Virus record (IMG/VR): IMGVR_UViG_2778261420_000023 | Reading direction: 5' to 3' (one strand) | Source: a virus | Taxonomy: Duplodnaviria; Heunggongvirae; Uroviricota; Caudoviricetes | DNA length: 14,121 nucleotides | Shown here: one piece after another, positions 82 through 14,121 of the stretch | Layout of the letters: each line of letters opens with the position of its first letter | Position numbering within the stretch: position 1 is the first letter of the stretch | Position numbers and translations under genes: made by a program | Notes under the pieces: generated by a model | Database searches by the model: none | What the model was told of the DNA's origin: nothing | What the model saw: the letters and a program-made list of their open reading frames with translations, nothing else

Positions 82-375
82 TTAACGTCGTAACCGCTCC
101 GGCTTCTTCCAGTGGTAAGTAATTTTTTCTTTCTCCTGGTACATCTCCACGCGGCGACGATATGACAACAACTCCAGAACTCTGGTGCGTATATTGCGTA
201 TATCCACGCCGTTAAGCTCGATACCGTCACGGCGCATCACCTCAGCCACCACACGCGCGTAATTTTCGGCTATCACGCTGTCCGGCTGCGTGGCCTCCTG
301 TTTGCCTGCTTCCTGGCTGATTCCGGTAACGCGACGGATTATTTTTAGTAGTTCGGTTTCGCTCATTCTCGTCAT
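82..375 (-). CDS. Hypothetical small protein, last gene of the packaging operon (possibly a head-tail adaptor/joining protein)
   Basis: 97-aa ORF; ATG at 375 overlaps the terL stop (ATGA), indicating translational coupling; a second in-frame ATG lies at 366. No motif recognised; the function is a guess from position. Confidence 0.45.
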   Translation of the reverse strand: MTRMSETELLKIIRRVTGISQEAGKQEATQPDSVIAENYARVVAEVMRRDGIELNGVDIRNIRTRVLELLSYRRRVEMYQEKEKITYHWKKPERLRR

Positions 376-2033
376 ACCCCATCAAACGCCGCAAGCCGCT
401 CTTTGTGGCTGTCGCTTATATCAAATGCAAATTCCTCATGTTCTGCCTGGAATGTGCCAAACGCCATCAGAGCCGCAACGCTCGGGTCTATCTTGTTGGA
501 TGATTTTTTCTTGTTCGGCTTGATATTGGCGTTCGCGTCACTCTGCATCACAACATTACTCATTGACCAGGTCAGCACCGGATCGCCACGATGCACAATC
601 ACCTTCCGGTTAACAAAAACTTCGAACGATTTCGCCGCCGGACTGAAACGAAGGTATGTTTGCGGGAACGGCTCCACCTCAAATCCTGCCCCCTGTAGCT
701 GCGTCCTCAGGTGCGTGGCGTTCCATGTATCGAAGCCCACCAGCCTGATATTGAAATTCTCTGCATCCGCCATGATGTCATCACGGATACGGTCATAATC
801 AATGCAGTCACCCGGTGTTGTGCGTATCCAGCCCGCCTTTACCCACTGGCGATAGATGGCGCGGTTTTTATTGGCGGGGTTCTGTAGCTGAAATTCCGGC
901 AGATAGTGACGGGAAACCAGCATAATCTTTTTACCGACCGGAAAGGCATAGCACACGCTGGAAATATCGCTGGTTGATGATAAGTCCAGCCCCGCGTAGC
1001 ACTCCTGACCGTATAAATCCGCCTCCGCGAACGTTCCGGCGCACTCCGCCCATGCACCGTTACCCATCCACGGCGTAGCCCCCTGACACCAGATATTGAA
1101 TCGCTTGGTGAGCATTTCCACCCACTGCGACGGAATACCCCGCGCTTTCTGGATGGTTGAGGCCAGTTTTTCACGATCGACGGAAACATCGATATTGGGA
1201 TTCGCCTTTATCCACATCGCCGGATCGTCAACCTCGCTTTCATCATCCAGCTCGTAAATCAGCACGAACATGGATTCGTTCACCTCTTCACCATCCAGTA
1301 TCTGGCAGCAATAGTCATAGTGTTGTTTACAGGCTGAAACAACGTTGCTCCCCGATGTGGTGATGGCAAATAACAGCCCCTCCGGACGCGCCCCCATTCC
1401 CAGTTCAAGCGCGGAATAAACCCCGTTGTCAGGGTGCAGGTGATATTCATCCACAATGGCAAGACTCGGGTTTGTACCTTCAATGGTTGCCGCTTTTGCT
1501 GCCAGTGGCTTTAACAGGCTGTTGGTTTTCGGGTGTATCACCTTGTGTGCCTGAATATTTACCCGCTTTCGTAACGGTCGGGATAAAAGGCACATCTGAC
1601 GCGCATCATCAAACACGATCCGCGCCTGATCACGACTCACGGCGGCGGTGTAAATATCCTGCTGCCCGTTTTCCATAACCAGAAACCAGTTAGCCAGGAT
1701 AGCGGCGACCGTGGATTTGGCATTTTTTCGCGGCACTTCAATGAATGCGCTGGTGTATTTGCGCCGTCCGGTGGCCTTAACCTTAAAGCCCAGGATGCAC
1801 GCAAAGGTGAACTGCTGCCACGGCTCCAGCTCAATGGGGCTACCGCGCATTGCGCCTTTTACGTGCGGACACACCCTGGAAAAGGCAATAAACCGCTCCA
1901 CGACCTCCGGATCGAACGTGTAAAGGGGGTTTTCAAGGTCAGAAAAATACCGTTTAACGGCCTGTTTCAGTCGTTTACAGGCCGTAATTTTGCCGTTTTT
2001 TACGCCTTCTGCGTACTCATGCCAAGCGGTCAA
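372..2033 (-). CDS. terL: Terminase large subunit (TerL)
   Basis: 553-aa ORF with a Terminase_1-like N-terminus (LEPWQQF...) and a P-loop-like VPRKNAKST motif. The start at 2033 is TTG (the track's M), overlapping the terS 3' end by 17 nt; start codon choice is uncertain. Confidence 0.88.
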   Translation of the reverse strand: MTAWHEYAEGVKNGKITACKRLKQAVKRYFSDLENPLYTFDPEVVERFIAFSRVCPHVKGAMRGSPIELEPWQQFTFACILGFKVKATGRRKYTSAFIEVPRKNAKSTVAAILANWFLVMENGQQDIYTAAVSRDQARIVFDDARQMCLLSRPLRKRVNIQAHKVIHPKTNSLLKPLAAKAATIEGTNPSLAIVDEYHLHPDNGVYSALELGMGARPEGLLFAITTSGSNVVSACKQHYDYCCQILDGEEVNESMFVLIYELDDESEVDDPAMWIKANPNIDVSVDREKLASTIQKARGIPSQWVEMLTKRFNIWCQGATPWMGNGAWAECAGTFAEADLYGQECYAGLDLSSTSDISSVCYAFPVGKKIMLVSRHYLPEFQLQNPANKNRAIYRQWVKAGWIRTTPGDCIDYDRIRDDIMADAENFNIRLVGFDTWNATHLRTQLQGAGFEVEPFPQTYLRFSPAAKSFEVFVNRKVIVHRGDPVLTWSMSNVVMQSDANANIKPNKKKSSNKIDPSVAALMAFGTFQAEHEEFAFDISDSHKERLAAFDGV

Positions 2034-2373: not shown

Positions 2374-2661
2374 GTTCTTTTTTCGCCCAATTATTTTCAA
2401 AAAAATTCCCGTGCACAAAAATTTGAGGAGGCGGTCGGTGTCCGGCAGGGACGGTTTCGTCCTGAAAACCACCCCCACCCCCTCTGACGGCCTCACCAGC
2501 GATTGCGAAAACATTCCATGACCTCGCGGTCACGGTCGGTTAATTGCTTCGCTGTGGTGCGTTCTGTGCGCCCTGTCCTGTTGGCTTTGTGCCCTGTCTC
2601 CTGTGTCTTCCATAAGTCACGCTGCCTTATCAGTCCACGTATCAGCCTGGTTTGCTCCTGT
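2374..2661. other. Candidate cos / terminase recognition region between HNH and terS
   Basis: 288-bp non-coding gap where HK97-like cos phages carry cos. Contains a C-rich tract (ccacccccaccccctc, ~2470-2486), a 5-bp-stem hairpin (ggacg gttt cgtcc, ~2449-2462) and an imperfect direct repeat TGTGC(G)CCCTGTC(TC)CTG at 2565-2580 and 2588-2603. Confidence 0.35.
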
Positions 2662-3102
2662 TCAGTCATCATCGCCATACATCCAGTCGTTACGGTGTGC
2701 TGCCCGTTCTTCCTGCTCGCGATACATGCCCGCCTTACGGTTCGCTTTCGTGGCTGGATCTTCCCGTGTCGTCTTACGGTTGTGGCACGTCTGGCACAAT
2801 GCCTGGTGGTTCCACTCAGGCCAGAAGAGAACATCACCGCCGCCATTGATGGGGATGATGTGATCCACCACAAGAGCTGGCGTATAAATCCCCTTAGCCA
2901 GACAACGCACGCATAACGGGTTTTTGCTCAGGTACAGGGCGCGGTATTTGTCCCACTGTCGGGAATACCCGCGCGCGCGGCGGTGTCCCCGTCTGGCATC
3001 CTCTGCACGCCATACAGCCCGTCTGTGCTCTTCACACTTGCCGGACTTCACGCGCTTATTACAGCCCGGCTCAGTGCATCGCCTTAATGGTTGCCACGGC
3101 AT
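2662..3102 (-). CDS. HNH homing-type endonuclease (phage packaging-associated HNH)
   Basis: 146 aa with Cys pairs (CTEPGC, CEEH) and the HNH core VVDHIIPINGGG...NHQALCQTCHNRKT. ATG at 3102 overlaps the connector stop (ATGA); GGGGG-type SD upstream. Confidence 0.88.
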   Translation of the reverse strand: MPWQPLRRCTEPGCNKRVKSGKCEEHRRAVWRAEDARRGHRRARGYSRQWDKYRALYLSKNPLCVRCLAKGIYTPALVVDHIIPINGGGDVLFWPEWNHQALCQTCHNRKTTREDPATKANRKAGMYREQEERAAHRNDWMYGDDD

Positions 3103-12891: not shown

Positions 12892-14121
12892 TTATATTTC
12901 TCTGGCTATTGGCAGTGTGGTTACGTTTTCGTGAGTACCTGCCAGTATCTCTAACCGCTCTGTCCACATGTCCAGCGCATTACGTTTCGCATCGAGATAA
13001 CGGGAGTGGTTATAGACTCGCTGCATCCCTGGCATCTGGTGAGCGGTGAGTTGTTCGACAATATGCGGATCCACGCCTAAATCATTCAGCATCGTGGTAA
13101 ACGTGCGCCGTATATCGTGTAGTGACCAGTGCGGATGGTTTAATTTTTTGTGCGTGAATCTGCCGTATTGCGACACGCTGGCTTCCTGTTTCAGTTCCCC
13201 GAGTAATAGCCCTGTGTGTCGGTTCTGCTCCACCAGCCGTGTGACGAACGGTAAAATGCTTTCCGGTATTGGCCTGAATATGGCTACCTTCGTTTTGCTG
13301 TGCTCCTTCGGTACTGTCCAGAGCATTTCCTTAAAATCCCACTCCCTGATCTCCGACAGCCTCAGTTCTCCGGTTCGGCAACCAAACACAATCAGGAGGC
13401 GGATTAGTGCGCTGTAGTAGGGCGGGAATATTTTTTTATCCAGCGCCTGTAATAATTCGCCCAGTTCTTTGTTACTAAGCACGCGTTCGCTTATGCCTGG
13501 TTTTTTACCAACGTCCACCACGTTGAGATCATCCAGAGCGTTACTGACGGCATAGCGGCGTTTACGACAGAATTTAAGCGCCTGTTTGCACGCCTGCATC
13601 ATGTGACCAGACGTTACGGGGGATTTTTTGCGTATCCGGTCAAAACAGGCCAGCCAGTGACGTAATTCGCATTTATCCAGTGGCATGTTACCGATGTGCT
13701 GTATGACGTGATTATTCAGGCGACTTTTCAGGCATACATAATCGACACGGTTTTCCTTTACGTGCGTTTCCAGCCAGTAACTGATCGCATCGCCAACCGT
13801 TACGGGTTTTAACGCTTCCTGCACAGTGTAGTTCAGTTCATGACGTGGGTTTTTCCCTTCTGCCAGCCATGCACGACACTTTGCGGCTTTTTCCCTGGCT
13901 GCTTTAAGGCTCAGATCGGGATAGTTTCCCAGCTTCAGACGTTCCGGTGTGGTATCCCTTCCCGTTCCAGCCCTGTAGGTGAAGTACCAGGTCAATTTAC
14001 CTGATGTTAAATATTTCACGCTCAGATTACCGCCATCGCTATAGAACGTATTTTTCTCCGCTGGCTTACCATAAAGTTTTCTTAACAATGTATCGTTCAG
14101 TTTGTTAAGCGCTCTGCTCAC
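12892..14121 (-). CDS. int: Tyrosine site-specific integrase, P4-type with N-terminal arm-binding domain
   Basis: 409 aa; N-terminus resembles the DUF4102 arm-binding region of CP4-57 IntA; catalytic signature present (GCRTGELR, HDIRRT, LTAHQ, RVYNHSRYL). The start is GTG at 14121..14119 on the window edge, so the true start may lie beyond the window. Confidence 0.88.
   Translation of the reverse strand: MSRALNKLNDTLLRKLYGKPAEKNTFYSDGGNLSVKYLTSGKLTWYFTYRAGTGRDTTPERLKLGNYPDLSLKAAREKAAKCRAWLAEGKNPRHELNYTVQEALKPVTVGDAISYWLETHVKENRVDYVCLKSRLNNHVIQHIGNMPLDKCELRHWLACFDRIRKKSPVTSGHMMQACKQALKFCRKRRYAVSNALDDLNVVDVGKKPGISERVLSNKELGELLQALDKKIFPPYYSALIRLLIVFGCRTGELRLSEIREWDFKEMLWTVPKEHSKTKVAIFRPIPESILPFVTRLVEQNRHTGLLLGELKQEASVSQYGRFTHKKLNHPHWSLHDIRRTFTTMLNDLGVDPHIVEQLTAHQMPGMQRVYNHSRYLDAKRNALDMWTERLEILAGTHENVTTLPIAREI

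Follow-up and report, generated by a model that had tools for sequence, protein, structure and literature searches.

The sequence analysed here (the window) is a stretch of 14,121 nucleotides from the IMG/VR virus record IMGVR_UViG_2778261420_000023, and the feature under study is the candidate cohesive-end (cos) packaging site located between the HNH endonuclease gene and the gene of the small terminase (terS, TerS) that precedes the large terminase gene (terL, TerL). The window is a capsid-forming phage-inducible chromosomal island (cf-PICI), a phage satellite of E. coli integrated in yifB. It is 100% identical to an island of ~15 kb that interrupts a yifB-like gene in E. coli 700481 (NZ_CM129038.1). 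The gene set of an integrated cf-PICI was recognised by Pfam searches and by the Prokaryotic Genome Annotation Pipeline (PGAP): integrase, primase, capsid, protease, portal, connector, HNH, terS and terL, without any tail gene. In the identical locus of NZ_CM129038.1, PGAP annotates the same genes and likewise none for tails. All relevant genes lie on the minus strand; terL, terS and HNH are followed by the genes for connector, portal, prohead protease and major capsid protein, and primase and integrase lie beyond these. The HNH gene, terS and terL are thus placed as around an HK97-type 3'-cos site. Members of this satellite group produce small capsids of their own, and the HNH, TerS and TerL proteins that package their DNA are likewise self-encoded (bioRxiv 10.1101/2022.09.08.507074). 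The host gene, at window positions 12892-14121 and in the flanks of NZ_CM129038.1, is a yifB/comM-like Mg-chelatase gene split into two pseudogene halves beside an rrn-tRNA cluster.

The first-pass annotation had treated positions 2374-2661 as an intergenic gap of 288 bp. This is wrong: positions 2493-2678 are coding, and the non-coding part is restricted to 2374-2492 (119 bp). The 61-aa product of the small open reading frame (ORF) in this region has a 50-aa counterpart in Klebsiella which also matches phrog_3173. Conservation of the protein extends from E. coli to Erwinia, Rahnella and Winslowiella, and its C-terminus reads RDRE(L/V)(R/M)ECFRNR in the protein alignment; it may serve as a packaging accessory. 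Its ORF is located between the HNH gene and the G-box described below in those enterobacterial relatives that were examined. On the other side of the gap, many gene callers give a 165-aa TerS starting at 2514. This form was rejected as an over-extension which translates the cos core, because an in-frame TAA stands two codons upstream of the terS ATG in the Klebsiella lineage; the 118-aa form is correct.

Read on the coding strand, the non-coding gap shows, from the TGA of the small ORF to the ATG of terS, the successive segments GGCCGTCAGA, GGGGGTGGGGGTGGTTTTCAGGAC, GAAACCGTCCCTGCCGGACAC, CGACCGCCTC, CTCAAATTTTTGTGCACGGGAA, TTTTTTTGAAAATAA and TTGGGCGAAAAAAGAAC (Table 1). Its recognisable contents are a G-box (2472-2482), a variable spacer, a C-rich 10-mer, the block CTCAAATTTTTGTGCACGG and a run of seven T followed by GAAAATAA (T7-GAAAATAA). 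A C-rich tract noticed earlier in this area is present: plus-strand positions 2472-2482 are the complement of the coding-strand G-box GGGGGTGGGGG, and the tract belongs to a conserved element. The G-box and the T7-GAAAATAA motif are each single-copy in the window; a single match to the G-box is by itself not unusual, at least one being obtained in 125 of 200 shuffles of the window. The G-box, the block CTCAAATTTTTGTGCACGG and the T7-GAAAATAA box beside terS are the more likely elements for recognition by the terminase.

Table 1. Features of the terminase region and of the conserved non-coding element (window coordinates).
Feature	Position	Strand	Evidence
terL, large terminase (ATPase and RNase-H-type nuclease)	372..2033	-	Pfam TerL_nuclease E = 2.4e-52, TerL_ATPase E = 3.7e-26; overlaps terS stop
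terS, small terminase, P27 family, 118 aa	2017..2373	-	Pfam Terminase_4 E = 1.6e-23; PGAP gives the 118-aa form
terS leader and ribosome-binding region, variable, TTGGGCGAAAAAAGAAC	2374..2390	-	columns poorly conserved between GAAAATAA and ATG
T7-GAAAATAA box, candidate TerS site, cosB equivalent	2391..2405	-	+23..+37 from the predicted cut; (nearly) invariant in 26 diverse relatives
Left-end flank CTCAAATTTTTGTGCACGGGAA, candidate terminase/HNH recognition flank of the nick	2406..2427	-	AATTTTT invariant, GCAC/GG nearly invariant
Predicted 10-nt 3' cohesive end, 5'-CGACCGCCTC-3' on the coding strand	2428..2437	-	10-nt gap in 29/29 relatives; gap-free alignment to the window
Variable spacer of fixed length, holding most of a lineage-specific hairpin	2438..2458	-	near-constant distance from G-box to T7
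G-box block GGGGGTGGGGGTGGTTTTCAGGAC, candidate right-end (termination, cosQ-like) element	2459..2482	-	about -55..-32 from the cut; GGGG core invariant
Small protein of 61 aa, conserved, basic, function unknown (phrog_3173)	2493..2678	-	PGAP coding sequence WP_072126739.1; phrog_3173 E = 9e-28 over the full profile; overlaps HNH stop
HNH endonuclease, packaging accessory of HK97-type terminases	2662..3102	-	Pfam HNH E = 8.8e-10; phrog_144 E = 7e-45

In order to evaluate the conservation of the gap, relatives were gathered via TerS, giving 80 IMG/VR loci and 71 loci from GTDB species representatives. Their hosts include Klebsiella, Citrobacter, Serratia, Erwinia, Xenorhabdus, Photorhabdus, Aeromonas, Gilliamella, Haemophilus and Rodentibacter, and the same architecture was found almost everywhere. 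Over a core of 51 nt, 14 relatives from Enterobacterales, Aeromonas, Gilliamella and Pasteurellaceae share 76-86% identity with the window, while the third codon positions of terS at conserved residues are only 28-58% identical in the same 14. An alignment of 26 sequences contains almost no insertions or deletions; the GGGG of the G-box, ACC, AATTTTT, the T-run and GAAA-TA are invariant, and the C-rich block and GCA-GG are conserved to more than 90%. Of 172 unique sequences, 158 show a distance of 74-75 nt from the G-box to T7. These alignments indicate strong purifying selection on the non-coding core with fixed spacing, which fits a site of protein-DNA assembly. The small hairpin proposed earlier for the gap does exist (GGACG-AAAC-CGTCC, about 2449-2462), but at chance level, a perfect stem of 5 bp being reached in 219 of 300 dinucleotide shuffles of the region; it sits in the spacer of non-conserved sequence and is absent from the relatives. 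In Xenorhabdus hominickii, the G-box has grown into a tandem (GGGGTA)x5 array (locus positions 2869-2900), while the remainder of the cos core stands at its usual distance from terS.

Two independent linear assemblies of relatives show an excised, cos-linearised gene order, and both end inside the conserved element. One of them, vB_KppS-Ant (LR881103, 16,548 bp), starts 22 nt before terS and stops just past the G-box. It was assembled with SPAdes from a Nextera XT library of lysate DNA, and was described by its authors as over 99% identical to K. pneumoniae DSM 30104 (PMC8006926). Comparison with the chromosomal island of K. pneumoniae ATCC 13883 (= DSM 30104) gave 600 identical bases out of 600 on each flank, and showed that the assembly lacks 69 bp of the chromosome, GAACACGAGGGCGCCAGGCAC-CACCCGCCCC-CTCAAATTTTTTCGCACGGTGATTTTTTTGAAAATAAA, a stretch that opens immediately past the G-box block and runs to the end of GAAAATAAA. 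Terminal sequence is known to be lost in Nextera libraries (PMC5557969). The record (LR881103.1), entitled 'Escherichia phage vB_KppS-Ant' and published as a filamentous single-stranded DNA induced prophage, corresponds to the cf-PICI KpCIDSM30104 of K. pneumoniae DSM 30104/ATCC 13883; its gene content comprises capsid, portal, HNH, terS, terL, integrase and primase.

The other assembly is the IMG/VR contig 3300022664_000095 (15,518 bp), with the order terS, terL, integrase (internal), primase, capsid, portal, HNH and small ORF. It begins with CTCAAATTTTTACGCACGGTGATTTTTTTGAAAATAA, the first bases of which (CTCAAATTTTTACGCACGG) coincide exactly with the aligned bases of the left-end flank, and finishes with GGGGTGGGGGAGGTTTTCAGGACAAAACCCAAGCCGCAAGGCAC (also given as CAAGGCAC). 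As in vB_KppS-Ant, the G-box block is kept at the right end. The two ends of the contig share no terminal sequence. In all 29 relatives with matching flanks, exactly 10 nt, most commonly CACCCGCCCC, lie between the sequences of the contig end and of the contig start; in the contig itself these 10 nt are absent and not duplicated. End-repair fills 5' overhangs and removes 3' overhangs, and genomes with 3'-cos ends assemble to contig limits devoid of the overhang (PMC5557969). The absence of exactly this 10-mer is thus as expected for a 3' overhang of 10 nt. In the window, the gap-free alignment places the equivalent 10-mer, 5'-CGACCGCCTC-3', at 2428-2437, and the nicks are accordingly predicted from the alignment between 2428/2427 on the minus strand and between 2438/2437 on the plus strand, the flank 2406-2427 being the predicted first double-stranded bases of the packaged genome. 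The predicted end differs by 1-3 bases among lineages (CACCCGCCCC, CGCCCGCCCC, CGACCGCCTC, CGCCTGCCCC and others), with the flanks CTCAAATTTTT and T7-GAAAATAA fixed, and such variation could limit the annealing of ends between lineages. The base-level position of the cut derives from this one contig, vB_KppS-Ant bracketing the site to 69 bp; IMG/VR scans for further contigs ending at the site gave this contig only. A scan of a single metagenome for the left end of E. coli type returned 22 internal matches and 0 contig ends. The fixed ends were seen in two relatives (vB_KppS-Ant/KpCIDSM30104 and contig 3300022664_000095).

Altogether, the stretch between the HNH gene and terS very likely holds the DNA-packaging cut site of the satellite, and the location proposed in the first-pass annotation is upheld by a conserved non-coding element and by the ends of the two excised-form assemblies. 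The same annotation had offered an imperfect direct repeat as the binding site of TerS, which was not supported (see below); it is very likely the conserved non-coding element of ~90 bp next to terS, and not this repeat, that constitutes the site. The reading favoured here, with a probability of roughly 80%, is that positions 2391-2482 (minus strand) are the cos site of the cf-PICI, of the known HK97 kind, with 3' cohesive ends of 10 nt at 2428-2437. After excision and replication of the island, its own TerS would attach to the concatemer just upstream of terS, at the T7-GAAAATAA box and the conserved block next to it. TerL, aided by the HNH protein, would then introduce staggered nicks on either side of the C-rich 10-mer, which would leave 10-nt 3' cohesive ends (5'-CGACCGCCTC-3' on the coding strand). 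Packaging would proceed from the cut into terS-terL and round the genome of ~15 kb until the next cos, so that the HNH gene, the 61-aa ORF and the G-box would form the right end.

Several observations weigh against this reading in its exact form: the base-level ends come from one assembly of which the library chemistry is unknown, the Nextera-based vB_KppS-Ant brackets the site only to 69 bp, and the overhang sequence differs between lineages. They would suit a cos site at the same place but with another cut geometry, in which the overhang had a different length or polarity, or the nicks were shifted by several bases, and the 10-nt gap was an artefact of assembly or trimming. Such an alternative is unlikely, since the gap is exactly 10 nt in each of the 29 relatives, which is the overhang length of phage HK97, and since the cut-aligned register is also the best one against HK97, as detailed below. 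Moreover, a 5' overhang of the lambda type would have been filled in and found duplicated at both ends of the contig (PMC5557969), and this duplication was not seen. Packaging by the headful (pac) mechanism was rejected: both linear assemblies end in the same 69-bp interval with sequence missing between their ends, and such fixed ends, together with the cohesive ends reported on packaged KpCIDSM30104 DNA (bioRxiv 10.1101/2025.02.11.637232), contradict it.

It was also considered whether the element is a control region for the expression of terS-terL (promoter, operator, terminator or antiterminator, or RNA structure), the DNA ends being elsewhere. The element lies directly upstream of terS, the G-box and the C-box are partly complementary and paired in single-sequence folds, and a weak terminator-like site overlaps the G-box. 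However, no sigma-70-like promoter was detected on the coding strand, where the terminator-like sites are only marginal, and nothing convincing was left of a promoter or terminator. A DNA or RNA structure involving the G-box and C-box was rejected as well: the fold z-scores (-0.75 for DNA, -1.47 for RNA) are no better than shuffles, the consensus structure is weak (-5.7 kcal/mol, covariation term -0.42), and the element has no match in Rfam. Since this explanation also leaves the two assembly ends inside the element unaccounted for, it is regarded as quite improbable, although a regulatory role could coexist with cos. Even less credible is a cos site in the gap with TerS binding to the direct repeat at 2565-2603. 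The repeat exists (2565-2581 and 2588-2604, 17 nt, 76% identity), and repeated TerS sites occur in other cos phages, such as the R sites in cosB of lambda. Against this, an equal ungapped repeat score was obtained in 38 of 300 shuffles, and the repeat is located inside the conserved phrog_3173 ORF, where one copy falls in an in-frame insertion of 7 codons confined to the E. coli/Shigella lineage. The insertion is absent from EDL933-like, Klebsiella, Kluyvera, Erwinia and Rahnella relatives, in which the cos core is retained; the repeat is therefore not of the non-coding kind conserved among relatives sharing the terminase. Its position is unfavourable too: some 130-175 bp separate it from the predicted cut on the end-of-packaging side, whereas the TerS site of HK97 is on the terS side.

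Among 5,426 complete E. coli genomes, 534 contain the sequence of the gap (window 2380-2495), which was seen on chromosomes in every case and occurs at most 5 times in one genome. Of the genomes carrying this island, 36, E. coli 700481 among them, show at least 99% identity. Where several cf-PICIs share a cell, their nearly identical cos cores could lead to competition or to cross-packaging. A search of 50,697 phage records at blastn sensitivity found the element only in entries derived from cf-PICIs and in no bona fide phage; together with the ungapped identity of 41% to HK97 cos over 120 nt, this is only an indirect check on whether the cos site differs from that of the helper. The record of Klebsiella phage P12620-1 (PQ569648.1), a 'complete phage genome' of 106,503 bp, carries the cf-PICI genes from capsid to HNH at its very end and stops inside the small ORF, with the cf-PICI terS ~15 kb from these genes; it looks like a chimeric or mis-joined assembly.

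The cf-PICIs are recently described, widespread satellites which move between species, and the cos site required for their exclusive self-packaging is mentioned but not mapped in accessible papers; no mapped position or sequence of it was found in the searchable literature. The base-level prediction given here (cut at 2428-2437, boxes at 2391-2427 and 2459-2482) makes the specificity of packaging directly testable. With its conservation from E. coli to Haemophilus, the motif offers a compact marker for finding cf-PICIs and a basis for cosmid-like vectors for their capsids. There are also consequences for annotation, as the 165-aa TerS calls cross the cos core and the 'phage' vB_KppS-Ant is a cf-PICI. 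A further-reaching and rather doubtful possibility is that the near-invariant core of ~90 bp (G-box, fixed spacer, C-rich 10-mer, CTCAAATTTTT-ACGCACGG and T7-GAAAATAA) is a universal packaging signal of cf-PICIs in at least four orders of Gammaproteobacteria. In that case, the terminase of any cf-PICI could package other cf-PICIs or any replicon with the element, co-resident islands could cross-package, with the overhang differences of 1-3 nt setting which ends anneal, and the G-box would be a cosQ-like termination element common to HK97.

Phage HK97 is the reference for 3'-cos packaging (PMC5557969). It has an overhang of 10 nt and a minimal TerS site at +15..+29 that includes an A-tract (bioRxiv 10.1101/2023.07.17.549218). 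Its junction reads GGGCAGGGGGGGGG-N32-CGCCGCCAAA|GTTTGAATTTAACGCTAACCCGATTTTTTTAGTTTTAAGG, the vertical bar marking the cut. When HK97 and the cf-PICI were aligned on their cuts, that of HK97 being experimental and that of the cf-PICI deduced from contig ends, the ungapped identity was 49/120 (41%), with register 0 the best of 81. None of 5000 full shuffles reached this score, and 89 of 5000 block shuffles which keep the local composition did. The G-run, the C-rich overhang and the T7 run of the two systems coincide within 1-2 nt. In both, the site lies between the HNH gene and terS, and a G-run about 45-55 nt before the cut is followed by a C-rich overhang of 10 nt, a T7/A-tract, an A/T-rich stretch and terS. 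The T7 run, invariant in the alignment of 26 sequences, is at +23..+29 in the window and at +24..+30 in HK97; the TerS site remains a candidate in the former. HK97 requires HNH gp74, TerS gp1 and TerL gp2; gp2 and the TerL of the window belong to the same two Pfam families, and both have an HNH partner. No homology of the cf-PICI TerS (P27/Terminase_4) to gp1 or to any solved structure was detectable by sequence, and AlphaFold models (predicted local distance difference test scores, pLDDT, of 69 and 73) displayed at most a weak similarity to the TerS of HK97. The two loci differ in that terS begins 49 nt after the cut in HK97 and 55 nt after it in the window, and in the phrog_3173 small ORF that stands between HNH and cos in the window, unlike in HK97. 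Phage ST64B, considered as a second cos reference of the P27 family, was uninformative, its record being circular with an arbitrary start.

In lambda, cos is tripartite, with cosQ on the end-of-packaging side, the nick site cosN, and cosB as the TerS site between the nick and terS (Nu1). The predicted layout of the window is likewise tripartite. Lambda cos has a 5' overhang of 12 nt, with IHF and R sites and no HNH protein; unlike in lambda, the overhang is missing from the ends of the cf-PICI contig and not duplicated. The closest parallels are found in the cf-PICIs EcCIEDL933 and KpCIDSM30104 (Alqurainy et al., 2022; He et al., 2025; preprints), for which self-packaging and cohesive ends were reported (bioRxiv 10.1101/2022.09.08.507074; bioRxiv 10.1101/2025.02.11.637232). 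They have the gene set and gene order of the window, and their cos core is 84-86% identical to it. The lineage of the window is distinguished from them by the predicted overhang CGACCGCCTC instead of CACCCGCCCC, by GTGCACGGGAA instead of ACGCACGGTGA, and by the insertion of 7 codons in the small ORF.
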